Assembly (NCBI GenBank): GCA_031409715.1
Contig: JANNXU010000084.1
Span: 63,704-127,703 of the forward strand
Length of the DNA: 64,000 nucleotides
Source: Gemmatimonadaceae bacterium
GTDB lineage: Bacteria; Gemmatimonadota; Gemmatimonadetes; Gemmatimonadales; Gemmatimonadaceae
Direction: 5' to 3'
The notes beneath the pieces are model-generated. The model saw only the letters and a program-made list of their open reading frames with translations, had not been told where the DNA came from and did not search any database. Positions 12,941 through 57,476 of the stretch are shown here, one piece after another. The position numbers and the translations under genes were made by a program. Each line of letters begins with the position of its first letter. Position 1 is the stretch's first letter.

Positions 12941-13375
12941 AACAGCAGAACGCAGAGTCGCCACGGGACAGAAAGGCGCAGAGGGTGTGCGGTGTCCGGT
13001 TGCGGTCTGACGGGGGCATGATTTGCGAAGGGCAGGTAACGCTGTAACGGCAACGGCAACGGCAACTGCTTGACGCCAAGGCGCAAAGGCACGGAGGTGC
13101 AACGCTGTCGGCCCGCGCGATGTTCGGTGGTGCGAGGGTGTTGTGTGCTCGAACGGCTGGAGGATCTGCGCTCGCGAGCGCAATTCCTCCAGCTTTTTTG
13201 CGGCGGGTGGCGTCAGTTCCATCGCGTCTCGTGTGACCGACCGCGTTGCGCCTTTGCGTCAAGCCGTTGACGATGCCAGACGCGCCGATCGACCGCTGCG
13301 ACCACGCGCGCTGTTCCCCCAGTACTTCTTTGCGCCGTTCGGTCCCTTTCAGTCCCTTTGCGTTGATGCTGTTCC
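12941..13375. repeat. Composite nested inverted repeat: A unit, (AACGGC)3, B unit, terminator, B', A'
   Basis: The A unit starts at 12941. Hexamers occupy 13046-13069 and the B unit starts at 13070. B' lies at 13243-13264 and A' at about 13310-13375. See findings for the sequences. Confidence 0.8.
13156..13199 (+). terminator. Rho-independent terminator of the helicase gene
   Basis: GCTGGAGGA-(tctGCGCTCGCGAGCGCaat)-TCCTCCAGC followed by TTTTTT. The inner GCGCTCGCGAGCGC is itself a perfect palindrome. Confidence 0.85.
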
Positions 13376-18154: not shown

Positions 18155-19132
18155 ATGTCCCGCAAGCCGATCGCCGTTTACCACGAGCATCCCGACTGGT
18201 TCCGCCCGTTGTTCGCTGAACTCGAGCGACGAGGAATCGCGTACGAGCGGCTGGATGCGGCCGCGCACCTGTTCGATCCGGCGGAGACCAGCGCACCGTG
18301 GTCGCTGGTGTTCAACCGCGCCAGTCCGTCGGCGTACCTCCGCAACCATGCGCAGACCACCTTCCACACGCTGCACTGGCTGCGGCATCTGGAGGGGATC
18401 GGCGTGCCGGTCGTGAACGGTGCGCAGGCCTACGCCTACGAGTTGTCGAAGGCGACGCAGCTCGACCTGCTGCGCGAACTCGGGCTGCCGTTTCCGAAGG
18501 CGCGCGTGATCAATCATCCGTCACGCGCGGTCGAGGCGACAAACGGTTTCCGCTTTCCCGTGCTGGTGAAGGCCAACATCGGTGGCAGCGGCGCGGGGAT
18601 CGTGCGCTACGAGACGGTGGAGGCACTGGCCGACGCGGTGGCGGACGGCACCGTCGACCTGGGCGTCGACAACACGGCGTTGGTGCAGGAGTCGGCGCCG
18701 CTGCGTGACGGGCACATCACGCGTGTCGAGACGCTGGGCGGGAACTACCTGTATGCGATCAACGTGTATCCGCCGCAGGACAGCTTCGACCTCTGTCCGG
18801 CCGATGCGTGCCAGACGACTTCGGGCGCGCAGCTCGTGCGCGGCGCATGCGCCATCGATGCGCCGACGTCGGGGATGCGCGTCGAGGCGGCGCATCCGCC
18901 GGCGCACATCATCCAGCAGGTGGAGCAGATCTCTCGCGCGGCGAACATCGACGTGGGCGGGATCGAGTACCTCGTGGACGACCGCGACGGGCAGCACTAT
19001 TTCTACGACATCAATGCGCTCAGCAACTTCGTGGCGGATGCGCCGAACGTGATCGGGTTCGATCCATTCGTGACGCTGGTGGACTACCTCGAGGCGCGGG
19101 TGGCTGGGGCGCCATCACTGGTGACGACGTGA
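18155..19132 (+). CDS. ATP-grasp domain protein (RimK / glutathione-synthetase-like fold)
   Basis: MSRKPIAVYHEHPDWF...; FPVLVKANIGGSGAGI; a GAGAGG Shine-Dalgarno sequence lies 8 nt upstream of ATG 18155. Confidence 0.75.
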   Translation: MSRKPIAVYHEHPDWFRPLFAELERRGIAYERLDAAAHLFDPAETSAPWSLVFNRASPSAYLRNHAQTTFHTLHWLRHLEGIGVPVVNGAQAYAYELSKATQLDLLRELGLPFPKARVINHPSRAVEATNGFRFPVLVKANIGGSGAGIVRYETVEALADAVADGTVDLGVDNTALVQESAPLRDGHITRVETLGGNYLYAINVYPPQDSFDLCPADACQTTSGAQLVRGACAIDAPTSGMRVEAAHPPAHIIQQVEQISRAANIDVGGIEYLVDDRDGQHYFYDINALSNFVADAPNVIGFDPFVTLVDYLEARVAGAPSLVTT

Positions 19133-19300
19133 GGCCCGGTGACTGGAGTCCCGGGTTCGGCGGGTGGCTGGGCACCGTGTCGGGCGTTGTCTCGGGCTCC
19201 GTGTGGGGCGACGGGACGGCAGCGGCGGCGATTGCGCGCTGAGCGTCACGAGCCGGGTGCGGTGCGCTGACGGGCTGCACCCGGACGCAGGTGACGGCGA

Positions 19301-19306
19301 TAGAAT
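19301..19306 (+). promoter_or_regulatory. Putative -10 box TAGAAT, 5 nt upstream of ATG 19312 (leaderless candidate)
   Basis: The sequence reads GATAGAAT-ggggc-ATG. Confidence 0.45.
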
Positions 19307-19311
19307 GGGGC

Positions 19312-20610
19312 ATGACATCCACGGTCGTGCCCAGCACCGCGAACCGCCTCCGCTCGATCGTCGGCGGGTCGGTCGGCAACCTCGTCGAGTGGTACGACTG
19401 GTACGCCTACTCGGCGTTCTCGCTCTACTTCGCGAAATCGTTCTTCCCGCCGGCCGACCAGACCGTGCAGCTGCTGAACGCGGCGGCGGTGTTCGCGGTG
19501 GGCTTCCTGATGCGGCCACTCGGCGGGTGGCTGATGGGTCGCTACGCCGACCGGCACGGGCGGCGCACGGCGCTGACGGCGTCGGTGCTGCTGATGTGCG
19601 CCGGGTCGCTGCTGATCGCGGTCACGCCGACGTACGCGCGCATCGGCATGGCGGCGCCGGCGCTGCTGGTGATCGCGCGCATGCTGCAGGGTGTGAGTGT
19701 GGGCGGCGAATACGGCGCGAGCGCGACGTACCTGAGCGAGATGGCGGGGCACGAGCATCGCGGGTTCTGGTCCAGCTTCCAGTACGTGACGCTGATCATG
19801 GGGCAGCTGCTGGCGCTGGGTGTGCTGCTGGTGCTGCAGCGCACGATGAGCACGGCGTCGCTGGAGATGTGGGGGTGGCGCATCCCGTTCGTGATCGGCG
19901 CGGCCTGTGCGCTGGTGGCGGTGACGCTGCGGCGCGGCATGGAAGAGACGACCGCCTTCACGCGCACCGTGCAGCCCGGCACCACGCGCGGGTCAGCACT
20001 GGCGGGACTGCTGGCGCACCCACGGTCGGTGGCAACGGTGTTCGGGCTGACCGCCGGCGGGACGGTGGCGTTCTACACGTTCACGACGTACGCCCAGAAG
20101 TTCCTGGTGAACACGGCAGGATTCACCAAGTCGGATGCCACGCTCGTCTCGGCGGCGTCACTGGCGATCTTCATGTGCGTGCAGCCGCTGGTGGGGACGA
20201 TTTCCGATCGCATCGGTCGGCGCCCCGTGCTGATGACGTTCGGTGTGGTGGGCACGCTTGGCACGCTGCCGCTGCTGACGGCATTGTCGAAGGCGGCGAC
20301 ATTCGGGAGTGCGCTGCTGCTGCTGACGCTCGCGCTGCTGGCGGTGAGCGGCTACACGGCGATCAACGCGGTGGTGAAGGCGGAGCTGTTCCCCGCGCAC
20401 GTGCGGGCACTGGGTGTGGCGTTTCCGTATGCGATCGCGGTGTCCGTGTTCGGCGGCACGGCGGAGTATCTGGCGCTCTGGTTCAAGAACATGGGCCACG
20501 AGCAGTGGTTCTACTGGTACGTGACGGCGTGCATTGCAGTGAGTCTGGTGGTGTATGCGACGATGCCGGAGACGCGGCACAGTGCGGCAATGCGCGAGGG
20601 TGAGGGGTGA
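19312..20610 (+). CDS. MFS transporter, metabolite:H+ symporter family (KgtP/ProP-like)
   Basis: Motifs: VGNLVEWYDWYAYSAF and the RPLGGWLMGRYADRHGRR loop (MFS motif A). About 12 hydrophobic segments are present. The start is moved from GTG 19291 to ATG 19312. Confidence 0.88.
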   Translation: MTSTVVPSTANRLRSIVGGSVGNLVEWYDWYAYSAFSLYFAKSFFPPADQTVQLLNAAAVFAVGFLMRPLGGWLMGRYADRHGRRTALTASVLLMCAGSLLIAVTPTYARIGMAAPALLVIARMLQGVSVGGEYGASATYLSEMAGHEHRGFWSSFQYVTLIMGQLLALGVLLVLQRTMSTASLEMWGWRIPFVIGAACALVAVTLRRGMEETTAFTRTVQPGTTRGSALAGLLAHPRSVATVFGLTAGGTVAFYTFTTYAQKFLVNTAGFTKSDATLVSAASLAIFMCVQPLVGTISDRIGRRPVLMTFGVVGTLGTLPLLTALSKAATFGSALLLLTLALLAVSGYTAINAVVKAELFPAHVRALGVAFPYAIAVSVFGGTAEYLALWFKNMGHEQWFYWYVTACIAVSLVVYATMPETRHSAAMREGEG

Positions 20611-26982: not shown

Positions 26983-27180
<198 letters not shown>

Positions 27181-27240: not shown

Positions 27241-27351
27241 TAGTGAAATGCTGAAAAGTTCGTGGTCGAAAGGTCGTCCTGGTTGCTGCTTGCCGCGTAA
27301 GTCATTCTCTTGCAATGACTTGCGCGGCTTTTCCGTTCGGGGTTGCGTATT

Positions 27352-27371
27352 GGACCGAGCGGTCCTAGTTT
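27352..27371 (+). promoter_or_regulatory. Palindrome GGACCGAGCGGTCC abutting the putative -10 box TAGTTT of tetR
   Basis: GGACCGAGCGGTCC (27352-27365) is followed by TAGTTT (27366-27371), 7 nt, then GTG 27379. Confidence 0.55.
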
Positions 27372-27378
27372 CACCCTC

Positions 27379-27996
27379 GTGAATACCCGACGCTCTCAGA
27401 TCCTCGATGTGGCAGCCGTGCTGATTGGGCGGCAGGGGTATTCCGCGACGTCCGTCGATGATGTCATTCGGGAATCGCGGCTGAGTGGCAAGAGTCACTT
27501 CTACCACTACTTCCGGAGCAAGGAAGAGCTCGGGTTCGAGGTGCTGGACCGGCAGTTCGAGCGATTCGCGGAGCGAGGTCTGGCGATCCTGCGGGAGCCG
27601 ATGATCGACCCGCTGGAGCGTCTCTACCTCTTCATCGATTCGCTGGTGGCGGCGCATGCCGAGCGCGGGTGTCACGGCGGATCGCCGTTCGGGACGCTGG
27701 CGGCGGAGATGGCTGATGCGCACGAAGGGTTCAGGCTGAGGATCGCGCAGGTGTTCGTGCGATGGTCCGGTCAGATCCAGTCGCTGCTCTGGGAGGCGCG
27801 GCCGCAGTTGCAGGATGACGTGGACGCGGTTCGGCTGTCGCGCTTCATCATCGCGGCGCTGGAAGGGGGGCTGATGATGTCGCGCGTGAAGCGGGACATC
27901 ACGGTGATGGAAGGGATCGCGCTGGACCTGAAGCGATTCATTTCGACGCACCTGCGCGACCCCGGTGCGGGGCTGCATCCGCCGGCGGGAGTTTGA
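27379..27996 (+). CDS. TetR/AcrR-family transcriptional regulator
   Basis: The N-terminal HTH is RRSQILDVAAVLIGRQGYSATSVDDVIRESRLSGKSHFYHYFRSKEEL. The start is moved to GTG 27379, in frame with TTG 27343. Confidence 0.85.
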   Translation: MNTRRSQILDVAAVLIGRQGYSATSVDDVIRESRLSGKSHFYHYFRSKEELGFEVLDRQFERFAERGLAILREPMIDPLERLYLFIDSLVAAHAERGCHGGSPFGTLAAEMADAHEGFRLRIAQVFVRWSGQIQSLLWEARPQLQDDVDAVRLSRFIIAALEGGLMMSRVKRDITVMEGIALDLKRFISTHLRDPGAGLHPPAGV

Positions 27997-28080
27997 CGAA
28001 TGCATGACGCCGGGCAGGGCCGGTTTGGTAGGGCACATCGGGCACGGGCAGGCCACACGACAGGACCTCGGGAGCAGACC

Positions 28081-28704
28081 ATGTCGGCAACGCAGCAGCA
28101 GGAACGGACGAGAACGAAGGGCAACGCAGTCTCGCGCAGCGAGGCGCCGCTCGAAGGCCGTGCGCGGTTCGAGGCCGAGGCGTTGGTGCATCTTGATGCG
28201 ATGTACAGCTTTGCTCTGAAGCTGTCGCGTTCACGGGACGACGCTGAGGATCTCGTGTCCGACACGATCCTTCGTGCCTTCGAGCGCTGGGAGCAGTACC
28301 GACTCGGCACCAACATCCGGGCGTGGCTGTTCACGATCCTCTACCACGTCTTCGTGAGTCGCAAGCGTCGGATCGACGCGCGCGAGGTGCAGGCCACGGA
28401 CGAGACGGATGGCTGGGGCGCATTCGAGCCGGTGGGCGAGGCGAACCCCGAGGCGCGCTTCTACGAAACGTTCCTCGACGCGGAGATCACGACGGCGATC
28501 GACAACCTGCCTGACGAGTATCGTGCGGCGGTGGTGTTGTCGGACATCCACGAACTGCGGTATGCCGAGATCGCACACATCCTCGGGGTGCCCGAGGGGA
28601 CGGTGAAGAGCCGCCTGTTCCGCGGGCGTCGCATCCTGCAGAAGAAGCTGGTGGGGTATGCGATGGACATGGGGTACATCAAGTCCGTTCCCGAAGCGGC
28701 CTGA
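28081..28704 (+). CDS. ECF (sigma-70 family group IV) RNA polymerase sigma factor
   Basis: Region 2 is DAEDLVSDTILRAFERWEQY...WLFTILYHVF. Region 4 is YRAAVVLSDIHELRYAEIAHILGVPEGTVKSRLFRGR. GGGAG lies upstream of ATG 28081. Confidence 0.88.
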   Translation: MSATQQQERTRTKGNAVSRSEAPLEGRARFEAEALVHLDAMYSFALKLSRSRDDAEDLVSDTILRAFERWEQYRLGTNIRAWLFTILYHVFVSRKRRIDAREVQATDETDGWGAFEPVGEANPEARFYETFLDAEITTAIDNLPDEYRAAVVLSDIHELRYAEIAHILGVPEGTVKSRLFRGRRILQKKLVGYAMDMGYIKSVPEAA

Positions 28705-29102: not shown

Positions 29103-29777
29103 TCAGGACACCGTGATCGGCCGGAAAGCCTGCGTGATCGGCGCCGCGCGCATCGGCTCGCGTGCGCGATGGCGGGCGGCCTTGGCGCGGTTGCCGCAGG
29201 TGGCCATGTCGCACCAGCGTCGGCGGCCGTTCTTGGTGCTGTCGAGGAAGACGCGGCGGCAGCGGGGGTCGCCGCAGCATCGAACGCGACCGAGTTCACC
29301 GGCGATGAGCGAGTCGGCGGCGTCGTCGACGATCGGCATCATGAGCGCCGCGAATGCGTCGCCGCCGGCGACGAAGTTGCGCGTGTAGACGCCGTCGCTC
29401 GCGAGCTCGAGGCGGCGCGTGCCGGCGCTTCGGCCGAGGACGCGGTTGATCTCGGCCACCGCTTCGGTGCGGGCGTCACTGGAGACGGCTCCGTGTTCCG
29501 CCAGCGCCCGCAGTGCGCTGCGGACGCGCCGGGCATCGAGGAGGGAGGCGGTGGCGCCGGCCGGTTGCTGTTCCGCACGCCGCAGGATGGCGAGTCGGCG
29601 GTCGTGGTCGATCACCCCGACGGCGGCGAGCCACTCGAGCATGGTGCCGAAGTCGCGCATGGCGTCGCGGCGGACGCCGAGTTCGATGTCGTCGGTGTTG
29701 ACGAAATCGAGCCAGAGGCGATCGCCAACGAAGACGAACGTGCGGCGATCAGCTGGAGCGACGACGAGAGCGGACAC
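29103..29777 (-). CDS. CGNR zinc-finger domain protein (ABATE + zf-CGNR)
   Basis: The C-terminus is RCCGDPRCRRVFLDSTKNGRRRWCDMATCGNRAKAARHR. GTG 29775-29777 has GAGAAGG 5 nt upstream. Confidence 0.85.
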   Translation of the reverse strand: MSALVVAPADRRTFVFVGDRLWLDFVNTDDIELGVRRDAMRDFGTMLEWLAAVGVIDHDRRLAILRRAEQQPAGATASLLDARRVRSALRALAEHGAVSSDARTEAVAEINRVLGRSAGTRRLELASDGVYTRNFVAGGDAFAALMMPIVDDAADSLIAGELGRVRCCGDPRCRRVFLDSTKNGRRRWCDMATCGNRAKAARHRAREPMRAAPITQAFRPITVS

Positions 29778-29867
29778 GGGGACCTTCTCTTGAGAGGATG
29801 ATTCGACGTTACCCCCGAATTGCGTTGACGCAAGCAAACGCGCTCGGCGCTGCGCTACCTTCGCGGC

Positions 29868-30440
29868 ATGACGGAACCTGTGCTGCTGCCCGGCGTGCAG
29901 CGTGTCGTGGTCGGATCGACGAACCCGGTGAAGGTCGCGGCGGTCCGCGCGACGGTGACCCGCTGCGCCAGGCACGTGGTGGTGCATGGGGTTGCGGTAC
30001 CATCCGGCGTGCCCGACCAGCCATGGGGCGACGCGGAGACCGTGGCGGGCGCACGGCAGCGCGCGCTGGCGGCGCTCGGGGCCGATCCGAGTGCCGATCT
30101 CGCGGTTGGTCTGGAAGGGGGCGTGGTGCGCGAGTCCGACGGCGGCGTACGGACCTGCGCCTGGGCGGTGGTGGTGGACCGCGCCGGCGTGGTGGGGATC
30201 GGCGGCTCGATGGCGCTGACGTTGCCGCCAGGCGTCGTGGCGCTCCTCGATGGCGGCATGGAGCTGGGCCATGCCATGGATGCCGTCGCGCGCACGACCG
30301 GAACCAAGCATGCCGGCGGGGCGGTGGGCCTGCTCACCGCCGGGCTGGTGCCGCTGCAGCGCATGTACGAGACGCTGACGGCCTATGCCCTGTCGCGCTT
30401 TCTGCAGCATGGGTTGTGGGAGGAGCACGCGTCAGGCTGA
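29868..30440 (+). CDS. yjjX: Inosine/xanthosine triphosphatase (YjjX / DUF84 family NTPase)
   Basis: Motifs: VVVGSTNPVKVAAV, GVPDQPWG, GLEGGV, with family-typical length (190 aa). TACCTT lies 6 nt upstream of the ATG. Confidence 0.75.
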   Translation: MTEPVLLPGVQRVVVGSTNPVKVAAVRATVTRCARHVVVHGVAVPSGVPDQPWGDAETVAGARQRALAALGADPSADLAVGLEGGVVRESDGGVRTCAWAVVVDRAGVVGIGGSMALTLPPGVVALLDGGMELGHAMDAVARTTGTKHAGGAVGLLTAGLVPLQRMYETLTAYALSRFLQHGLWEEHASG

Positions 30441-30530: not shown

Positions 30531-30697
30531 GTGGACTGGAAACGAAGTTCGGGAAAGCAGTCGCCGGTCGGAGCATCCCGGCTGGCTGCGTTGAACATCC
30601 TCGCAATACCGCGGGTATTGCTGTGGTTTTCGCCTTCCCATCCGGGCGCCCCACCCGGCTTGATGCTCTCCGAACTTCATTTCCAATCCACTAGATT
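30531..30697 (+). promoter_or_regulatory. ispH upstream element: 22-bp inverted repeat (2 mismatches) ending in CAC-TAGATT
   Basis: GTGGACTGGAAACGAAGTTCGG starts at 30531, and CCGAACTTCATTTCCAATCCAC lies at 30670-30691. TAGATT (30692-30697) is 6 nt from ATG 30704. The right half is 27/33 identical to the pyp upstream region. Confidence 0.55.
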
Positions 30698-30703
30698 ACG
30701 AGG

Positions 30704-31924
30704 ATGTCAGTCACCGACGAAGAGACGTACTACCGGAAGGGGTTCGGCCTCAAGGCCGACGTACAGGACACCCTCGCCGACGATTACACCGGCCGCCTGG
30801 TGGACGTGTTGCGGGCCAGCGAGTACACGGTCACCTCTGGGGACGTGACGGTGCGCCTCGCCAAGGAGTTCGGCTTCTGCTACGGCGTGGAGCGGGCCGT
30901 CGAGTACGCCTACCAGACGCGCCGGAAGTTTCCGGACCGCCGCGTCTTTCTGGCTGGCGAGATCATCCACAACCCGCACGTGAATCACAAGCTGCGGGAG
31001 ATGGACATCACCTTCCTGCAGTCGAAGGGGACCGGGTTCGACTACGACCTCGTCCAGCCGGACGACGTGGTGATCCTGCCGGCATTCGGCGTGACGATTC
31101 AGGACTTCGAGACGCTGCGCGCACTGGGCTGCATCATGGTGGACACCACCTGCGGCTCGGTGCTGAACGTCTGGAAGCGGGTCGAGAAGTACGCGCGTGA
31201 CGGCTTCACGTCGCTGATCCATGGCAAGCACTATCACGAGGAGACGCGCGCGACCGCCAGCCAGGTGCAGAAGTATCCCGAGGGGCGCTATCTGGTGGTG
31301 CGCGACATGTCGGAGGCGCGGCTCGTCTGCGACTTCATCGAGGGCCGGTGGGACCGGGCGAGTTTCCTCGAGAAGTTCGCGGCTGACCGCGCCTCGCCCG
31401 GTTTCGACCCCGACCTGCACCTGCGACGGATCGGTGTGGCCAACCAGACGACGATGCTGGCGCGTGAGTCGCTGGCGATCGGCGAAGAGGTGGGGCAGGC
31501 GATGGCGCGAGCGCACGGCGCTGCGGCTCGCGAGGCGAACTTCCGCACCTTCGACACCATCTGCTCCGCCACGCAGGACCGTCAGGATGCCGTGGAGGAG
31601 CTGCTGCAGGAGCCGCTGGACGTGATGCTGGTGGTGGGCGGGTACAACTCGAGCAACACGATCTCGCTGGCGGCGATCTGCGCCGACAAGGTGACCACCT
31701 ACCACGTGGAGGATGCCGAGGGCATCGATCCGGTGGCGGGTGTGGTGCGGTACCGGCCCATCGGGCTGCACGTGGAGGAGGCGACGCGCACCGGCTGGAT
31801 GCCGGCGACGGGGCCGGTTCGGGTCGGAATCACGGCGGGCGCGAGCACGCCGAACAACAAGATCGGCGAGGCTGTGGCGCGCATCTTCCAGACGCGGGGC
31901 ATCGACCCGGCGCAGATCGGGTGA
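30704..31924 (+). CDS. ispH: 4-hydroxy-3-methylbut-2-enyl diphosphate reductase (long form)
   Basis: FGFCYGVERAVEYAY, GEIIHNPHV and later conserved Cys/His regions are typical of IspH/LytB. Length is 406 aa. Confidence 0.9.
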   Translation: MSVTDEETYYRKGFGLKADVQDTLADDYTGRLVDVLRASEYTVTSGDVTVRLAKEFGFCYGVERAVEYAYQTRRKFPDRRVFLAGEIIHNPHVNHKLREMDITFLQSKGTGFDYDLVQPDDVVILPAFGVTIQDFETLRALGCIMVDTTCGSVLNVWKRVEKYARDGFTSLIHGKHYHEETRATASQVQKYPEGRYLVVRDMSEARLVCDFIEGRWDRASFLEKFAADRASPGFDPDLHLRRIGVANQTTMLARESLAIGEEVGQAMARAHGAAAREANFRTFDTICSATQDRQDAVEELLQEPLDVMLVVGGYNSSNTISLAAICADKVTTYHVEDAEGIDPVAGVVRYRPIGLHVEEATRTGWMPATGPVRVGITAGASTPNNKIGEAVARIFQTRGIDPAQIG

Positions 31925-49892: not shown

Positions 49893-52800
49893 TCAATGAA
49901 AGTCATGACTCCGCGCATGCTCCGCCCCCAGCTGTGCATCCAGCGGCACGAACAGCCGCCCCTTCACCGTCACCACGTTCGACTCCACCTGCAGCGTGCC
50001 CCGCACCAGCAGCAGCGGTGACGTGCTGATCTTCAGCGCATCACGCTCGAATCGCTGCGGCGTGACGACGACGTTCACAATGCCGGTCTCGTCCTCCAGC
50101 GAGAGGAAGACGAAGCCCTTCGCAGTGCCGGGCCGCTGCCGGCAGATCACCAGGCCGGCCACCGCCACCTGCTCGGTGTCGCGGCCGTTCCGCTGGAGGT
50201 CGCGCGCGGTGCGGATGCCGTTCGGCTGCAGCAGCGGCCGCAGATGTCGCATGGGATGCCCGTTCAGCGACAGCCCCGTCACGCGATAGTCCGCCTCGGT
50301 CAGCTCGGCCATCGACATGTGCGGTAGCGCGGCGTCGGGCAGTATTACCGATGGGGCAAGCGGCCCCGCGTCGCCACGCACGGCGGCCAGCACCTCCCAC
50401 AGCGCGCGGCGCCGGCGCGTGGCCAGCGGCTCCTGCGCGAACATCCCGTCGAACGCCCCCGACTCCGCCAGCAGTCGCAGTGCACGCCGATCGAGCCGCG
50501 TGCGCCGCACCACGTCACTCACGTCGCTGAACGGCCCCTCGGTGAGCGCCGCCTCGAGCTTGCCACGCGCCGCCGCGCCCAGCCCGCGCACACTGCGTAC
50601 GCCAAGCCGCACCGCCGGTGCGCTGGACTGCGGCCGGCGCAGCTCGAGCGTCGCGTCCCACGCCGAACGGGTGAGGTCCACGGAGCGCACCTCCACGCCG
50701 TGTCGCACACCGTCCTCGATCAGCGTGCCCGGCGCGTAGAACCCCATCGGCTGCGCATTCAGCATCGCCGCCAGGAACTCGGCATGGTAGTAATGCCGCA
50801 GCCACGCCGACGCGTAGACCAGCAGCGCGAAACTGGCGGCGTGGCTCTCGGGAAAGCCGTAGTCGGCGAAGGCGTTGATCTGCGCGAAGATGCGGTTGGC
50901 GATGTCGTCGTCGATGCCGTTGGCGCGCATCCCGGCGAGCATCTTCTGGCGCAGCGCCTCCATCTTCTCGTGGCTGCGCTTGTGTCCCATCGCGCGGCGC
51001 AGTGCATCGGCCTCGCCGGCGGTGAAGCCGGCACAGGCGATCGCGACCTGCATGCCCTGCTCCTGGAAGAGCGGCACACCGAGTGTGCGCTTGAGGATCG
51101 GCTCCAGTGACGGGTGCGGGTAGATCACCTCCTCGGTGCCGGCCCGGCGGCGCAGGTAGGGGTGCACCATCGCGCCCTGAATCGGCCCGGGGCGGATGAG
51201 TGCGACCTCGACGACGAGGTCGTAGAAGCAGCGCGGCTTGAGGCGCGGCAGCGTGTTCATCTGCGCTCGACTCTCCACCTGAAACACGCCGATGGTATCG
51301 GCCGCACAGAGGTCGTCGTAGACCGCCTGGTCGCTGGTATCGAGCAGCGCGAGATCGATGCTCACGCCGCGCGTCTGCCGCACGTATACGAGGCAGTCCT
51401 GCAGCACGGTGAGAATGCCGAGTCCGAGCAGGTCGATCTTCACCAGGCCGGCGGCATCGAGATCGTCGCGTTCCCACTGGATGACGGTGCGCCCCGGCAT
51501 GGAGGCGGGCTCGATGGGCACGACGGTGGAGAGGGGCTCGCGCGTGAGCACGAAGCCGCCGACATGGATGGAGCGATGACGCGGCAGTTGGTGCAGACCG
51601 TCGACGATGTCGGCGAGGGCACGCACACGCGGATCGGCGGGATCGAGGCCGGCGCGCTGCAGCAGGTCGGTGGGGAGTGTGCGCTCCTGCTTCGCGCCGA
51701 AGCCGGTGGTGGGCGCGGTGGCGGATGGTGGCGTCATCACCGGCGTGCCCGGTGTGGAGGCGTCCATCGCGCCGCGTTCGACGGCGGTGGTGCGGCGGGT
51801 GCGCGCCTTGGGGATGGCGGCGAGGCGCTCATCACGTTCGAACCGCTTGCGCAGTTCGGGGCGTCCGCCGGTGCCGTCGCCATGCATGCCGTCGAACCCA
51901 TCCACGTCGGCGGAGGCGGTGCGGATGGACGGGCGGTGCACGGTGAGCGGCACTGGTGCATCATCGGTGCCGTTGGTGTTGGCGGTGGTGTTGGTGTTGG
52001 TGTTGGCGGTGGTGTTGGTGTTGGCGGTGGTGTTGGTGTTGGCGGTGGCGTCGGCGGTTGCGGTCGCGCTGGCGAGGGCGCGCTTGGCCATGTCGCGCCG
52101 GATGTGCGGGCGATCGGTGTCGGGGACGTCGGCGCGGTGCACGGGGCCGGTGCCGTTCACGGTGTTCGGCGTGGCATCGACGAATGCCACGCGACGAAGA
52201 TCATCGGCGGTGCCGTTGCCGATGCCGGCGCGCAGTGCGGCGGCGGTGCTGCGCGCGCTGAAGCGGTCGCTGACGGCGGCCAGCGCATCGCCCTGCTCCA
52301 CCGAAAATCCGAGCACGCGTGCCGCGTCTCGCACCGCGCTGCGACCGCGGTAGGTGATCTGCTCGCAGACCATCGCGGCGTGCTCGCGGCCGTAGCGTTC
52401 GTACACGTACTGCAGCACGCGCTCGCGATCGCGGTGGGCGAAGTCGATGTCGATGTCAGGCGGTTCGCGGCGGTCCTCGCTGAGGAATCGCTCGAAGAGC
52501 AGTTCCATGCGGATGGGATCGACGGCGGTGATGCCGAGGCAGTAGCAGACGGCGGAGTTGGCGGCGGAGCCGCGACCCTGGCAGAGGATGCCCTCGCGCC
52601 GCGAGAAGCGGACGATGTCCCACACGATCAGGAAGTAGCCGGCCATGTCGAGGCGGCGAATGACGGCCAGTTCGTGCGCCAGCTGCCGCGCCTGTGCGGG
52701 GGTGCGGGTGGAGCCCCAGCGTTCCGTGGCGCCGGTCTCGACGAGCTGCGCGAGATAGTCGTCCTCGCTCACGCCGGGCGGCAGCGGAAATCGCGGCAGC

Positions 52801-53621
52801 GACGGCTTGATCTGCCCGATGCGGAACTGGCAGCGTTCGGCGATGGCGCGGGTGGCCCGCAGGCCCGCCTCGTGTCCCAGCCAGCGCTTGTGATGCAGGG
52901 CGGTGGACTTGAGGTACCACTCGCCGTTGGGCCGCAGGCGCGTGCCCATCGCGTCGAGCGGGCGGCCGTGGCGCAGGGCGGTGAGGGCGTCGTGGGTGGT
53001 GCGACCCTGCCGCGTGGCGTAGTGCACGTCGTTCGTGACGACCCACGGCACGCCGATGCGCCGCGCCAGCGGGATGAGCTGCCGCACCAGCGCATGCTCT
53101 TCGGGGAGGCGGTGATCCCAGACCTCGATCGCGAACGATTCGGCGAAGAGATCGCGCATCACGCCGGCCACGCGCGCGGCCTCGGTGGCGTTGCCGGCGG
53201 CGAGCGCCTGCGGGATCGCGCCACGCGGGCAGCCGCTGAGCGCGAACAGCCCACCGGCATGCTGCGCGAGCAGCGCGAACGACACCGACGGTGCCCCACG
53301 CTCGGCGGCGTCCATGCGGGCGCGCGTGAGCAGCGTGCCGAGGTTGCCGTAGCCCGTGCGCGACATGGCGAGCAGCGTGAGGTGCTGCAGGGCGCCATCG
53401 GATTGCACCGTGAGTTCGGCGCCGATGATGCCCGCGATGCCGGCGGTGTCGCAGGCCTGCGCGAAGCGCACGGCGCCACCGAGTTCATCGTGGTCGGTGA
53501 GTGCGAGGGCGGGCTGTCCGGCGATGAGTGCACGGGCGACGAGTTCTTCCGGTGCCGACGCGCCATCGAGCAGCGAGAAGGCGCTGTGGCAGTGCAGCTC
53601 GACGTAATCGGCGGCGGTCAC
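49893..53621 (-). CDS. dnaE2: Error-prone DNA polymerase III alpha subunit DnaE2 (ImuC)
   Basis: The PHP N-terminus is YVELHCHSAFSLLDGAS, and similarity to polymerase III alpha runs through the protein. The start is GTG. At 1242 aa it is longer than usual because of a low-complexity insert. Confidence 0.93.
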   Translation of the reverse strand: MTAADYVELHCHSAFSLLDGASAPEELVARALIAGQPALALTDHDELGGAVRFAQACDTAGIAGIIGAELTVQSDGALQHLTLLAMSRTGYGNLGTLLTRARMDAAERGAPSVSFALLAQHAGGLFALSGCPRGAIPQALAAGNATEAARVAGVMRDLFAESFAIEVWDHRLPEEHALVRQLIPLARRIGVPWVVTNDVHYATRQGRTTHDALTALRHGRPLDAMGTRLRPNGEWYLKSTALHHKRWLGHEAGLRATRAIAERCQFRIGQIKPSLPRFPLPPGVSEDDYLAQLVETGATERWGSTRTPAQARQLAHELAVIRRLDMAGYFLIVWDIVRFSRREGILCQGRGSAANSAVCYCLGITAVDPIRMELLFERFLSEDRREPPDIDIDFAHRDRERVLQYVYERYGREHAAMVCEQITYRGRSAVRDAARVLGFSVEQGDALAAVSDRFSARSTAAALRAGIGNGTADDLRRVAFVDATPNTVNGTGPVHRADVPDTDRPHIRRDMAKRALASATATADATANTNTTANTNTTANTNTNTTANTNGTDDAPVPLTVHRPSIRTASADVDGFDGMHGDGTGGRPELRKRFERDERLAAIPKARTRRTTAVERGAMDASTPGTPVMTPPSATAPTTGFGAKQERTLPTDLLQRAGLDPADPRVRALADIVDGLHQLPRHRSIHVGGFVLTREPLSTVVPIEPASMPGRTVIQWERDDLDAAGLVKIDLLGLGILTVLQDCLVYVRQTRGVSIDLALLDTSDQAVYDDLCAADTIGVFQVESRAQMNTLPRLKPRCFYDLVVEVALIRPGPIQGAMVHPYLRRRAGTEEVIYPHPSLEPILKRTLGVPLFQEQGMQVAIACAGFTAGEADALRRAMGHKRSHEKMEALRQKMLAGMRANGIDDDIANRIFAQINAFADYGFPESHAASFALLVYASAWLRHYYHAEFLAAMLNAQPMGFYAPGTLIEDGVRHGVEVRSVDLTRSAWDATLELRRPQSSAPAVRLGVRSVRGLGAAARGKLEAALTEGPFSDVSDVVRRTRLDRRALRLLAESGAFDGMFAQEPLATRRRRALWEVLAAVRGDAGPLAPSVILPDAALPHMSMAELTEADYRVTGLSLNGHPMRHLRPLLQPNGIRTARDLQRNGRDTEQVAVAGLVICRQRPGTAKGFVFLSLEDETGIVNVVVTPQRFERDALKISTSPLLLVRGTLQVESNVVTVKGRLFVPLDAQLGAEHARSHDFH
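51972..52048. repeat. In-frame 18-nt tandem repeat inside dnaE2 (coding strand ACCGCCAACACCAACACC; TANTNT peptide repeats)
   Basis: The plus strand reads GTTGGTGTTGGCGGTGGT... and the encoded peptide is ATANTNTTANTNTTANTNTNTTANTNG. Confidence 0.9.
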
Positions 53622-53644
53622 GCGACACCGCCAGCGCGAGTGGA

Positions 53645-53718
53645 GTGGACATGAAGTTGGGGCAGCACAAAGCCGGCTGGCGACTGCACCCCGAACTTCG
53701 TTTCCACGTCACTAGATT
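53645..53718 (+). promoter_or_regulatory. pyp upstream element: imperfect inverted repeat ending in CAC-TAGATT, homologous to the ispH element
   Basis: GTGGACATGAAGTTGGGG lies at 53645-53662 and CCCCGAACTTCGTTTCCAC at 53689-53707. TAGATT (53713-53718) is 7 nt from ATG 53726. Confidence 0.55.
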
Positions 53719-53725
53719 GCGCGGC

Positions 53726-54166
53726 ATGGAGACCCCGGACACCCCACGCACGGACCTGCAGCGACTGACTCCGGCGTCGCACGAGGCGCTGAAGGCCGAG
53801 ATCCTCTCGACGGCCGACACGATGTCGGGCGAGGAGCTGGACACGCTGCCGTACGGCATGATCCAGCTGGACGCGACGGGGCGCATCCTCAAGTACAACG
53901 CCGTCGAGAGTCGCCTCGCGCAGCTGCCGCAGGAGACGACGATCGGCAAGAAATTCTTCAGCGAAATCGCACCGTGCACGAAGGTCCAGCAGTTCTACGG
54001 GCAGTTCAAGGACGGGGTGCTGCGCGAGTCGCTGGACACGACCTTCTCCTTCCACTTCGCGTTCAAGCAGAACCCGCGTGACGTGACGGTGCGGCTGTTC
54101 TACAGCAAGCGGACGCGGAGTGTGTGGGTGATGATCTCGGACCGGGAAGGGAACCCGATCGGGTAG
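53726..54166 (+). CDS. pyp: Photoactive yellow protein homolog (PAS-fold blue-light photoreceptor)
   Basis: It aligns with H. halophila PYP recalled from memory: GMIQLDATGRILKYNAVE versus GAIQLDGDGNILQYNAAE, and IGKKFFSEIAPCT versus IGKNFFKDVAPCT. Tyr42, Glu46 and Cys69 equivalents are present. Length is 146 aa. Confidence 0.88.
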   Translation: METPDTPRTDLQRLTPASHEALKAEILSTADTMSGEELDTLPYGMIQLDATGRILKYNAVESRLAQLPQETTIGKKFFSEIAPCTKVQQFYGQFKDGVLRESLDTTFSFHFAFKQNPRDVTVRLFYSKRTRSVWVMISDREGNPIG

Positions 54167-54208
54167 CTCGGCGTGGCGTGACTGCTGCTGCTCCGACAGC
54201 AACTGCCA

Positions 54209-54586
54209 CTGCAACGGCAACGGCGGAAACGCAAAACTGGACAGCCGCAAAACGGCACTGTTGCAAAACGGCAACGGCAACGGCCACCGCGATTTTATCG
54301 CAGAACGGCACAGCCGCAGAACGGCACAACCGCAGAACGGCAACAGCCACCGAACAGCAAGGGCTTTGCGAACTGCAGTTGCCGTTGCAGTTCCTCCAGC
54401 ATTTTCGATGCATCGTGTTTCGCAGACACTGAATGCCCGCACGAATGCCGTGCCGTTCTGCGGTTGTGCCGTTCTGCGATAAAATCGCTGTGGCCGTTGC
54501 TGTTGCTGTCGCCGTTGCCGTTTTGCAACAATGCCGTTTTGCGGTTGTGCAGTTTTGCGTTTCCGCCGTTGCAGTTGCAGTTGCAG
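54209..54586. repeat. Large imperfect palindrome (arms of about 133 bp, centre of about 110 bp)
   Basis: The left arm is 54209-54341 and the right arm 54452-54586, about 90 percent complementary by eye. Arms contain GCAGAACGGCACARCC repeats, (AACGGC)n and (GCAGTT)n. The degenerate symmetry extends to both gene ends. Confidence 0.9.
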
Positions 54587-54637
54587 TTGCAGTCGCAGTT
54601 GCAGTCGCCGTCGCTGTTGCCGTGACCGTTGCCCGGG

Positions 54638-56413
54638 TCAGTCATACCAGCCCTGCAGGTGCCAGGTGTCGGACTCGTGGTAGACGAGCAGGGTGCCGAC
54701 TTCGCGGGTGTGGAGGTGCCAGTAGTCGCGGGCGAAGGGGGTGCGCCACCAGGCGCCGGTGAGGCGTTCGGGGCCGGTGGTGTCGAGGATGGTGAAGGTG
54801 TGTGACTGCCAGACGCCGGCGAGGGGGCGGTAGTCGCCGTCGCAGGTGATGCGGACCGGCTGCGGCGGGGTCAGCAGGCGGAGGGCGGCGGGGGTGGCGG
54901 TGCGGTCGCCGGCGAAGAGGGGGAGCCATTCGCCGAGGTGGGTGGTGAGGGCGTGATCGTCGCTGCGGGGGGCGACGGCGTTCTGCGCGACGGTGCGGGC
55001 GGCGGCGACGGCGGCATCGTCGCCGTCCACCAGCTCCGCCCAGGCGCCGCACCGTTCGGCGCGGTGATCGTCGCGCAGCACCGGGCGCATGACGCAGTCG
55101 GGGCCGAGGGTGCTGCGGAGGCGCTCGAGGGCGGCGAGGGCGGCGCCCGGGTCGCGCCAGCCGGCGTCGAGCAGGTCGCCCTGCTCGCCGGTGGCGGGGA
55201 GGGTATTGGTGAGCGTGACCGTGACGCCGCAGATCGGCGCGACCAGGGGCCAGTCGGCGAGGAGGGCGCGGCAGCGTTCGAAGAGCGGGGCGACGCGGGC
55301 GAGGGGATGCGCCGGCCGCACCTCGCGGGTGACGGTGTCGTGCGGGGCACCGTCGCGCGGGGCGGGGCGCAGCGCCGGCCGTGAGACCGGGCGCCCGTCG
55401 GCGGCGCCGGTGTCGGCCCGCTCCGGCCCTGCGTCCAGGCCCGCATCCTCCCGCGGCACACCATCCAGGTGCAGGGTGATGGAGACCGCGGCGGCCGCCA
55501 GCCCGTCCCGCACCAGATCGCGGACGAGGGTCTCCAGCGCCGCGCGCACCAGAAAGAGCGCTGGCTCCATGGTGTCACTGGCCCCGCCCAGCTCCGCCGT
55601 GACACTGCGCTGCGCCTCGAGGCGGGCGAGGACGGGGCGGCGCGGGTCCTCGCCATGGGCCAGCCGCCAGGCACCGAGGCCCGTCTCACCCCAGCGCCGC
55701 TCGATGTCCGCCACCGGCAGCGCCGCGAAGCCGCCCACCGTGCGGATCCCCAGTGCCTCGAGCGCGGCCACCAGCTCCTCGTCCAGCGGCAGGAACCCCA
55801 GCGGGAGCGGGGCAAGGAAGGCGGCATCGCCCGTGGAGGGGATGCAGACCGCCCGCTCGCAGTCCGCCGGGAGGGCATGCCAGGTGGCGGCACGGGCGGC
55901 GGCGCAGGAGTCGGCGACGGCCACGCGGGCCAGCGGATGCCAGCGCTGGGCGAGCCCCAGCAGGGTGCGGGCGAGGCGCCGCTCCCCCCCGATGGCGTCG
56001 AACCCCGTGGCGCCCACCCACCAGGTCCCGTTGACCGCCCCGGCCGGGGAGACGTGCGGGCTGGCCTGGATCAGCGCCGCCGTGGCGCGGGTGAGGGCCC
56101 CCGCGATCGCGATCTCGTCCCACGGCAGCACCTCCAGCCGGCTGCAGCGGGCCTTTGCCTCGGGAACGGTCATCCCCGCCCGCACCCGGGCCTTCCCCGC
56201 AGCAGCCGTTACCGCCCGAAGCCGAGTGCCGTCGGCAAGGGCGAGGAGCCGCTCATCCCAGTGCTTCCCCGGGTCGGCCGCAGGTGGTGCGCTGGCCGGC
56301 TCGCTGGTCTCCAGCCCCAGCCCGAGCTGCCGCGGCCCCTGGCTGGCGCGCCAGACGGCACCAACCGGGAACCGCGGGATCCGGACACAGGCAACGCGCC
56401 AGAGAGCAGACAT
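54638..56413 (-). CDS. imuB: ImuB, Y-family-polymerase-like component of the imuB-dnaE2 mutagenesis cassette
   Basis: The N-terminus is MSALWRVACVRIPRFPVGAV with ...RAGMTVPEAKARC...VADSCAAARAA.... It has Y-family palm-like organisation and lies next to dnaE2. The start is at ATG 56411-56413. Confidence 0.85.
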   Translation of the reverse strand: MSALWRVACVRIPRFPVGAVWRASQGPRQLGLGLETSEPASAPPAADPGKHWDERLLALADGTRLRAVTAAAGKARVRAGMTVPEAKARCSRLEVLPWDEIAIAGALTRATAALIQASPHVSPAGAVNGTWWVGATGFDAIGGERRLARTLLGLAQRWHPLARVAVADSCAAARAATWHALPADCERAVCIPSTGDAAFLAPLPLGFLPLDEELVAALEALGIRTVGGFAALPVADIERRWGETGLGAWRLAHGEDPRRPVLARLEAQRSVTAELGGASDTMEPALFLVRAALETLVRDLVRDGLAAAAVSITLHLDGVPREDAGLDAGPERADTGAADGRPVSRPALRPAPRDGAPHDTVTREVRPAHPLARVAPLFERCRALLADWPLVAPICGVTVTLTNTLPATGEQGDLLDAGWRDPGAALAALERLRSTLGPDCVMRPVLRDDHRAERCGAWAELVDGDDAAVAAARTVAQNAVAPRSDDHALTTHLGEWLPLFAGDRTATPAALRLLTPPQPVRITCDGDYRPLAGVWQSHTFTILDTTGPERLTGAWWRTPFARDYWHLHTREVGTLLVYHESDTWHLQGWYD

Positions 56414-56670
56414 GGGACAGGTGGCACGCGATGGCGTGGAAGCGTGAAATCGATGACAGGGGAGGGTGGGAGAGGGAGCATACCGAAGAAACACCGAAGC
56501 GCAAGGAAGGCGACAGTGCTGGCGCGACCGCCCTCGCAGACGGTGACGGGCAAAGCCGCCACACACGAAAATGTGACCTTCTCAATTGTTGCGCTCGCTC
56601 GGCAGGTCGTGCGAAAAATCGCGGGACGAAGGCATCAATGGCTGTGTTCGCTTTATGGGCCAGGAAAGGC

Positions 56671-56693
56671 AAATCGTTGCCATGAAACGATTT
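56671..56693. promoter_or_regulatory. Palindrome AAATCGTT-N7-AACGATTT in the imuB / PEP-CTERM divergent spacer
   Basis: It has perfect 8-bp arms and is AT-rich compared with its surroundings. Confidence 0.4.
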
Positions 56694-56780
56694 AAGCATG
56701 CCAGGCGATGGGGGCGCAGAATTGCAATGGATGAGCCCGTAAGCAATTCGCCGCATCCTTCCCCCCCTCGGGAGTTCCAC

Positions 56781-57476
56781 ATGGTCCGCTCAATCATCCG
56801 CACCGCCGCCGCCATCACCATCGCCTTCGTCGCCGCCGTACCGGCGCAGGCGCAGTACTCCTTCGTGCCGACCAGCGCCGGCATCGGCGGTTCCAGCGTG
56901 CTTGGCTGGGCGCAGCTTGGCAGCACCTACACCGCAGTCGCCAACACCACGTCCGGCCTGACCATCACGAACACCGCCACCACCGCGACGATCTCCCATA
57001 CGGTCAATACCAGCTTCGAGCGTCGCGATCAGGGCAACGGCTGGGGCGGCAACTTTGCGCCGAACAGCGCACTGCTGTGGAATCGCGGCGACAACGGACC
57101 GCTCACGATCATGTTCTCCGGCGCCGTCGGGGCAGCCGGTTCCGCCTACCAGAAAGACGCGTACGGCGCGTTCACCGGCACGATCGAGGCGCTCGATGCC
57201 GGCCAGAACGTGCTCGCGACATTCACGTTCTCGGGCAACTCGAACGGAAATAGTGACGGCAGTGCCGTGTTCGCCGGCATCGCCAGCACGCTCAACAACA
57301 TCTGGGGCGTTCGCTTCACCGGCACCAGCGGCAGCGCGCCCAACAACTTCGCCATCAGCAACGTCTCGATGAACCTGAACGCCCAGGTCGTCCCGGAACC
57401 GTCCACCTACGCCCTGCTCGGCACGGGCCTGCTGGCACTCGGCGGCGTCGCCCGTCGCCGCCGCATCACGGCCTGA
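56781..57476 (+). CDS. PEP-CTERM sorting-domain secreted protein
   Basis: The signal peptide is MVRSIIRTAAAITIAFVAAVPAQA and the C-terminus is VPEPSTYALLGTGLLALGGVARRRR. GGGAG lies upstream of the ATG. Confidence 0.88.
   Translation: MVRSIIRTAAAITIAFVAAVPAQAQYSFVPTSAGIGGSSVLGWAQLGSTYTAVANTTSGLTITNTATTATISHTVNTSFERRDQGNGWGGNFAPNSALLWNRGDNGPLTIMFSGAVGAAGSAYQKDAYGAFTGTIEALDAGQNVLATFTFSGNSNGNSDGSAVFAGIASTLNNIWGVRFTGTSGSAPNNFAISNVSMNLNAQVVPEPSTYALLGTGLLALGGVARRRRITA

Follow-up and report, generated by a model that had tools for sequence, protein, structure and literature searches.

A photoactive yellow protein-type gene is a near-constant neighbour of the error-prone polymerase gene dnaE2 in a mutagenesis cassette of Gemmatimonadota

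A 64,000-nucleotide stretch of DNA from a Gemmatimonadaceae bacterium (contig JANNXU010000084.1; hereafter the window) carries imuB and dnaE2, two genes of the imuA-imuB-dnaE2 mutagenesis cassette, with a gene coding for a photoactive yellow protein (PYP), pyp, lying between them on the opposite strand. This placement is conserved among related soil and freshwater bacteria of the phylum Gemmatimonadota: at 72 of 78 informative loci carrying the same pyp subfamily, pyp stands head-to-head with dnaE2. As an accessory gene, pyp is tied to dnaE2 at almost every locus that has it. The fixed partnership suggests an undescribed link of light sensing to damage-induced mutagenesis. With modest confidence we favour a lineage-specific variant of the cassette in which a PYP-type gene became fixed head-to-head with dnaE2, dnaE2 would be transcribed by read-through from imuB, and the PYP would be a coumarate-type blue-light sensor. 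In the window, dnaE2 (49893-53621, minus strand, GTG start) codes for an error-prone DnaE2/ImuC polymerase of 1242 amino acids, pyp (53726-54166, plus strand) for a single-domain protein of the PYP subfamily (146 amino acids), and imuB (54638-56413, minus strand, ATG at 56413) for a Y-family homolog of 591 amino acids; the gap of 1016 bp between imuB and dnaE2 contains pyp and a large imperfect palindrome. The gene coordinates and strands given in an earlier note on this DNA were borne out by the open reading frames (ORFs), and its gap of about 1 kb and its palindrome were confirmed as well.

To follow the linkage across genomes, one genome per species was scanned for this PYP subfamily, which was found to be encoded in 455 genomes. 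The best 80 loci were examined, and all came from Gemmatimonadota: they belong to Gemmatimonadales, apart from a few that bear the label Longimicrobiales and a single one that is probably mis-binned. In line with membership of the Gemmatimonadaceae, the loci closest to the window were all Gemmatimonadota metagenome-assembled genomes. Seventy-eight loci, chosen only for carrying this pyp subfamily, had at least 400 nt of sequence upstream of pyp and were informative. At 69 of them the N-terminus of dnaE2 was encoded on the opposite strand no more than 450 nt from pyp, and motif anchors showed dnaE2 to be adjacent to pyp at L050, L070 and L076 as well, which brings the head-to-head loci to 72. 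At L012, a 4.4-kb insertion, a xanthine-dehydrogenase-like operon, separates pyp from dnaE2, and in five loci (L030, L035, L059, L066 and L079) pyp was found in other contexts. In split cassettes, where 3-8 kb of unrelated genes lie between pyp and imuB, pyp remains with dnaE2 and not with imuB. The intervening stretch of one split locus (L060) was considered as a site for the chromophore-synthesis genes TAL and coumarate ligase (pCL), which was rejected, as it carries a phosphodiesterase and a P-type ATPase instead. The same pyp-dnaE2 arrangement was present in G. phototrophica (L036) and in a Roseisolibacter isolate (L052). In the sister PYP subfamily of Acidobacteriota (about 50% identical), three of three contexts were unrelated and none included dnaE2. 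The synteny of pyp and dnaE2 is solid: the physical coupling to an error-prone polymerase gene, which the earlier note had read from the window, is no chance insertion, and pyp, far from being missing at this position in all relatives, is kept there.

The protein itself is PYP-like in sequence. A comparison with PDB sequences returned 33 distinct matches, all of them PYP, Ppr-PYP or PYP-derived FAST proteins, with gap-free alignments over 113 residues (E 1.6e-23 to 3.4e-16); the relatives' proteins are annotated as 'PAS domain-containing protein' by NCBI and as 'photoactive yellow protein' by JGI. Among 92 sequences of the subfamily, Cys69, Glu46 and the APCT motif were invariant (92/92 each), as were Ala67, Pro68, Thr70, Phe62 and Phe75, and Trp119 was retained in 91 of the 92; position 42 was Tyr in 80 sequences (87%) and Phe in 12. 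Because the chromophore cysteine and its hydrogen-bond partners Glu46 and Tyr42 are kept, a role as coumarate-type sensor is suggested, and chromophore binding is plausible. As a weak check only, an AlphaFold2 model built from 20 sequences (pLDDT 60, low confidence) was compared with known structures by Foldseek, and each of the top 40 matches of this low-confidence model was a PYP; matches to other PAS domains were weaker by about 1000-fold. Comparison with 14 close relatives gave pyp a dN/dS of 0.05-0.15, which shows purifying selection and is similar to the value for DnaE2 (0.02-0.14), with higher values for ImuB (0.10-0.22) in the same relatives. In the same genome pairs (window 53726-54163 against L001-L015), the dS of pyp was 0.41-0.60, mostly below the 0.49-1.03 of the flanking dnaE2 and imuB, which may hint at an added constraint on the DNA or RNA of pyp, such as an antisense transcript could impose. 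A multi-PYP architecture was also seen in the protein library, whose best-scoring representative (P0121, 1174 amino acids) contains four PYP-like stretches.

Reading of the pyp/dnaE2 spacers revealed a 17-bp direct repeat, TTCGGT-N5-TTCGGT on the dnaE2/imuB strand. In 1.1 Mb of sequence, 87 strict matches were counted in a single orientation and none in the other, with about 1 expected, and 167 instances gave the consensus TTCGGt-nTtTn-TTCGGtA; with T or G allowed as its last letter, the motif reads TTCGGT-N5-TTCGG[TG] (window 56482-56498, loci L001-L160). Across the loci, the genes that have the repeat upstream are imuA, imuB, dnaE2 and one for a radical-SAM protein of the PA0069/Rv2578c family, and the repeat also precedes imuA in pyp-free canonical imuA-imuB-dnaE2 cassettes. 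In Pseudomonas, PA0069 and imuA-imuB-dnaE2 are members of the LexA regulon. Judged by its distribution, TTCGGT-N5-TTCGGT is probably a DNA-damage operator of Gemmatimonadota, and we put it forward as a candidate that a repressor would bind. In the window, the operator TTCGGTGTTTCTTCGGT (56482-56498, minus strand) is located between the -35 and -10 elements of the imuB promoter: it fills the 16-nt spacer between the -35-like hexamer TTGCGC (56499-56504) and the -10-like hexamer TATGCT (56477-56482). The whole promoter/operator block (56477-56520, minus strand; CACTGTCGCCTTCC-TTGCGC-TTCGGTGTTTCTTCGGT-ATGCT) was near-invariant in an alignment of 11 sequences with variable flanks, including the C-rich imuB 5' leader of about 65 nt (56414-56476, minus strand), the sequence of which varies among relatives.

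Operator position divided the loci into three classes. Class A (29 loci including the window) comprises contiguous cassettes with the order [imuA-]imuB, opposite-strand pyp and dnaE2, in which the operator is present only upstream of imuA/imuB. In class B (31 loci, mostly split cassettes), the operator lies beside the dnaE2 ATG, inside the pyp/dnaE2 spacer. In class C (5 split loci with a short spacer), it lies 11-24 nt beyond the pyp stop codon and is directed at dnaE2, and a dnaE2 transcript starting there would therefore be antisense to the whole of pyp. The layout of class A implies the same antisense crossing of pyp, by read-through from imuB. In the window's clade no operator accompanies dnaE2, and in this genome the gene also lacks a recognisable promoter. 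The divergent spacer, which is 104 bp long in the window (53622-53725), is only about 30 bp long in 10 close relatives; alignment with these relatives showed that about 75 bp of the window's spacer are an insertion private to this genome, and the distance between pyp and dnaE2 anchors is 240 nt in the window versus 156-171 nt in most close relatives. Across all loci, spacers range from ~12 to ~500 bp. The insertion was also considered as a dispersed repeat, which was rejected, as no more than a 17-mer of it recurs, at the ispH locus alone. Several relatives have a Shine-Dalgarno (SD)-like GAGG or GGAGG 6-9 nt before the dnaE2 start, which within a ~30-bp spacer places the 5' end of the mRNA in or beyond pyp. 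In several lineages the stop codons of pyp and imuB are separated by just 2-20 nt, leaving no room for terminators, and no terminator-like or sigma-70-like promoter sites were detected on either strand of 53400-56900, with the reservation that the E. coli consensus may not fit this host. The lack of an operator at dnaE2, the ~30-bp ancestral spacer and the class C loci favour read-through, and dnaE2 is most likely read from the imuB promoter, antisense to pyp. This runs counter to the earlier proposal that dnaE2 depends on a promoter within the 104-bp spacer, a proposal that found no support: against it speak the ~30-bp spacer of the 10 relatives, the private nature of the insertion and the operator found only at imuB in this clade, and equally the SD sites and the five class C operators past the pyp stop codon.

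The spacer does appear to contain a promoter for pyp. A promoter-like element at 53691-53718 (plus strand) consists of CCGAACTTCGTTTCCA at 53691-53706 (-35 region) and the -10-like TAGATT at 53713-53718. The CCGAACTTCGTTTCCA block is supplied by the private insertion of ~75 bp. The -10-like box is conserved in close relatives (CTATATT in relatives; CTAGATT at 53712-53718 here) and lies only 7 nt before the pyp ATG, suggesting that the pyp mRNA is leaderless or near-leaderless. Both blocks belong to a two-block element, CCGAACTTC[A/G]TTTCCA-N3-CACTAGATT, followed 6-7 nt later by an ATG, which precedes pyp and also ispH/lytB (30704-31924, plus strand; LytB confirmed by Pfam). The element has just two sites in the 64 kb (30670-30703 and 53691-53725, both plus strand), with the same spacing. 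Since it is oriented toward pyp and has the same distance to the ATG as at ispH, it would be the promoter of pyp and not that of dnaE2. A third copy of the 17-mer (30537-30553, minus strand) points toward a CGNR zinc-finger/ABATE regulator gene (29103-30428, minus strand), which suggests that pyp, ispH and this regulator gene are co-regulated in this genome. An 'ispH-like inverted repeat' had been reported for the spacer; ispH-like sequence is indeed present there, as a single copy of the 17-mer, and the inverted pair exists only at the ispH locus. A gene for a TetR-family regulator, directly followed by one for an ECF-type sigma factor (27343-28704, plus strand), lies about 2 kb away from the element at ispH.

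The large imperfect palindrome (54185-54604, ~420 bp) occupies the interval toward which the 3' ends of pyp and imuB converge. It is built of 6-, 8- and 16-nt units, and its 106-nt arms match at 88%, its 60-nt inner arms at 93%. As RNA it folds into one hairpin of exceptional size (-321.5 kcal/mol, z = -20.4). Palindromes made of the same short units but differing in sequence were found in the same place at L001, L004, L006, L008, L009, L010 and L013, and none was present at L007, L011, L014 and L015, where the gap is 16-88 nt. The palindrome is a fast-evolving structured element, and it could act as a barrier, a processing site or a stabiliser of mRNA 3' ends. A smaller palindrome at 13055-13277 (32-nt arms 159 nt apart) has a repeat vocabulary (GCAACGGCAAC..., ACGCCAAGG) in common with the large one, and hexamer runs resembling GCAACGGCAACGGC are present at 27110-27129; the palindromes of the window may belong to a dispersed family of intergenic palindromes.

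In the reading that we favour, the direct repeat in the imuB promoter (56477-56504) would be the only damage-type control site in this genome, dnaE2 would be transcribed by read-through from that promoter, the transcript crossing the palindrome and running antisense to pyp, and pyp would be transcribed in the opposite direction from its own TAGATT promoter, the two-block element of which is also found at ispH. Over about 0.9 kb, the transcription of imuB-dnaE2 and that of pyp would collide in an excludon-like manner; damage induction of imuB-dnaE2 would depress pyp, and pyp transcription would damp dnaE2. As a coumarate-type blue-light sensor, PYP would inform the DnaE2 mutasome or its expression. 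That PYP gates the ImuB-DnaE2 translesion machinery by light, via contact with DnaE2, ImuB or the repressor or via mutual antisense interference, is a tentative extension of this reading.

Several observations weigh against it, some touching the transcript and others the sensor. The argument for read-through draws on operator positions, an internal minus-strand promoter may lie within the pyp coding region, and in the window's subclade the 420-nt hairpin between imuB and pyp could block or process the read-through transcript. No match for E. coli LexA was found by tblastn in the window or in the 80 loci. Moreover, class B has a plainly divergent pair of pyp and dnaE2 without any overlap, which means that antisense interference is not the universal reason for the linkage. 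It is conceivable, if doubtful, that dnaE2 has a promoter of its own in the spacer after all and forms a classical divergent pair with pyp, both genes being controlled by one factor that may be light-dependent. The divergent head-to-head layout is the sole feature common to classes A, B and C, the class B operator does sit in the spacer beside dnaE2, the near-palindromic TATATT box of the window's clade could serve both directions, and the large palindrome may insulate dnaE2 from imuB transcription. Such a promoter would nevertheless have to fit into the ~30-bp, operator-free spacer of the relatives, and the SD-like sequence before dnaE2 implies a leader too long for the space; no sigma-70-like promoter was detected on either strand in the window, whose extra 75 bp are private and contain an element that faces pyp, and the class C operators are located beyond pyp.

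As for the sensor, the protein scored 106 bits (E 1.3e-30) against TIGR02373, which is under the equivalog cutoff of 143.05, its pocket residues are systematically non-canonical throughout the 92 sequences (T50A, R52L, D97A, Y98F, M100Q), and no TAL or coumarate ligase gene was found within 10 kb of pyp in the 80 loci or in the window. These features would suit a PYP-derived PAS protein whose ligand was lost or changed and which now, independently of light, either belongs to the ImuB-DnaE2 mutasome as a small accessory subunit or adaptor, or senses another small molecule; so would the lack of an output domain, due to which the protein must act by protein contacts, and the lack of imuA beside imuB in the window's clade. 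We regard this as unlikely. Cys69, Glu46 and the APCT motif are kept without exception across the phylum and Tyr42 is replaced only by Phe, a strictness that disfavours loss of function, which would have relaxed these residues; adjacent TAL and pCL genes are also missing from many accepted PYPs; and pyp is equally present at imuA-bearing loci, so it is no substitute for ImuA. Rather improbable, finally, is neutral hitch-hiking, in which a single pyp insertion was retained only through its overlap with dnaE2 control sequences. A spacing of ~30 bp makes damage-free separation unlikely, and there are a few pyp copies elsewhere (L030, L035, L059, L066). The cassette also works without pyp: in a sample of 80 metagenome loci picked by the DnaE2 N-terminus alone, pyp was present at 11 loci, those closest to the window's dnaE2, and missing at 69, which had canonical contiguous imuA-imuB-dnaE2 cassettes. 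As pyp-free dnaE2 loci are this common, pyp is dispensable for the cassette, which counts against the favoured reading as well. In a rough neighbour-joining tree of DnaE2, pyp-linked and pyp-free loci were interleaved, with a resolution too poor to decide between one gain of pyp with several losses and several gains. What argues against hitch-hiking is that the linkage outlasted the splitting of the cassette, the relocation of the operator to either side of pyp and spacers of ~12 to ~500 bp, that the 4.4-kb insertion at L012 shows separation to be possible yet rare, and that no fixed neighbour was seen for the nearest PYP subfamily, that of Acidobacteriota.

The identities of the flanking genes were established from domain matches and synteny in a region of high GC content (about 0.60-0.79 across 47-60 kb). 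DnaE2 matched NF004225 ('error-prone DNA polymerase') with 1274.6 bits (cutoff 939) and contains the Pfam domains PHP, Pol3-alpha, finger, HHH and OB; its start codon aligns with the ATG or GTG of 10 relatives. A low-complexity insert of ~195 amino acids (aa ~453-648, window about 51680-52260, minus strand) lies between the palm/polymerase core and the finger; it is Ala/Thr/Asn/Pro-rich with TANTNT... repeats, and the DNA shows a strong GC- and AT-skew anomaly. ImuB is a divergent Y-family homolog with an IMS_C match and weak Pol IV matches (Pfam, NCBIfam, PDB), which appears, from a loss of catalytic residues judged by eye, to be catalytically inactive. Its orthologs in the same position are 72-81% identical, the start codon and the N-terminus MPSLWRVA are kept among relatives, and in more distant relatives imuB sits between imuA and dnaE2; a tblastn search with ImuB against annotated plasmids gave no match. 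A tblastn search of the 64-kb window, with two ImuA proteins of Gemmatimonadota as queries, found no imuA. At more distant loci, about 27 in number, imuA is located upstream of imuB, and the ImuA of relatives in this position has a RecA fold with a weak match to NF033429. A close relative (L014) has an imuA-like gene (18456-19511) with its own operator (19493-19509) about 6 kb from imuB. Relocation of imuA is more probable than its loss in the window's clade, and the end of the window may precede a relocated imuA.

The statement of the earlier note that no imuA-like ORF is visible upstream of imuB agrees with our analysis, 56414-56780 being non-coding and followed by an ORF for a PEP-CTERM protein on the plus strand (56781-57476). 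It had likewise listed neither chromophore-synthesis genes nor lexA in the window, and none turned up here: Pfam searches of the 34 predicted ORFs and motif scans found no TAL/aromatic ammonia-lyase and no coumarate/AMP-dependent ligase, and Pfam searches of the same ORFs and tblastn with E. coli LexA found no lexA or S24 gene in the window. Candidates from a broad S24 motif scan were only spurious frames. An antisense ORF of 274 amino acids (53618-54442, minus strand), whose terminal GTGA overlaps the dnaE2 start codon, was rejected as a gene: it matched no Pfam family and uses the same codon register as pyp, as expected from the bias in GC content at third codon positions (GC3), and it is probably a GC3 shadow ORF. 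An ATGA overlap in L057 parallels this GTGA overlap. A 90-aa ORF following the operator (56209-56481) matched no Pfam family.

Despite the thorough biophysical study of PYP, cellular roles of stand-alone PYPs are known in very few organisms, and a whole PYP subfamily with a single fixed genomic partner makes PYP function concretely testable. Cultured Gemmatimonas and Roseisolibacter allow such tests, since L036 and L052 share the arrangement. If the tentative reading of a light-gated mutasome is true, light would be an environmental input to SOS mutagenesis, and the cassette would be the first photoreceptor-controlled mutasome, with a defined cellular function for a PYP; error-prone bypass would be tuned to light and hence to photolyase-mediated error-free repair or to UV risk. 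The direct repeat also offers a candidate DNA-damage operator for the Gemmatimonadota, for whose SOS system we found no description. In addition, loci in which the operator lies before or after the nested gene form a natural series of architectures and provide material for the study of antisense nesting within an operon.

In the full-text literature that was searched, no paper linking PYP with dnaE2, imuB, SOS or Gemmatimonadota was found, a 2012 survey of PYP contexts lying outside the coverage, which agrees with the remark in the earlier note that its author was not aware of any such description. Four known systems invite comparison. Excludons, as known from Listeria, are loci whose long transcripts have a double role, being the mRNA of one gene and antisense RNA to its opposite-strand neighbour. 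The likeness is a damage-controlled transcript that, in classes A and C, would cross all of pyp to reach dnaE2; the arrangement differs in that the gene is nested inside an operon and does not lie between divergent operons, in that class B has no overlap, and in that it is known here from sequence. Compared with the PYP of Halorhodospira halophila (TIGR02373), the protein is 37-39% identical over 113 gap-free residues, is likewise a stand-alone single domain and shares Cys69 in APCT, Glu46, Tyr42, Asn43, Phe62, Phe96 and Trp119, whereas it has ~20 extra N-terminal residues, its subfamily carries T50A, R52L, D97A, Y98F and M100Q as fixed replacements, the TIGR02373 score is below the cutoff, TAL and pCL neighbours are missing, and dnaE2 is a fixed partner, for which no report on any PYP was found. 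The candidate operator resembles the alphaproteobacterial LexA box GTTC-N7-GTTC (PMC8565304) and its Acidobacterial counterpart in being a direct repeat with an 11-bp period that overlaps promoters of SOS mutagenesis genes. It differs from GTTC-N7-GTTC in its half-site, TTCGG(T), and TTCGGT-N5-TTCGGT is not among the LexA motifs of PMC8565304. Cassettes of the imuA-imuB-dnaE2 type under LexA control, contiguous or split, are already well described (PMC3919608). Shared with them are a DnaE2 that exceeds the NCBIfam cutoff, an apparently inactive Y-family ImuB, an ImuA upstream of imuB in relatives, a conserved operator overlapping the promoter, and split forms in which dnaE2 has its own operator. 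The present cassette differs in the lack of imuA in this window and in an operator that is not a listed LexA motif. What is new is the photoreceptor-type gene: in contiguous cassettes it is nested in the interval from imuB to dnaE2, on the other strand, and in split ones it stays beside dnaE2.

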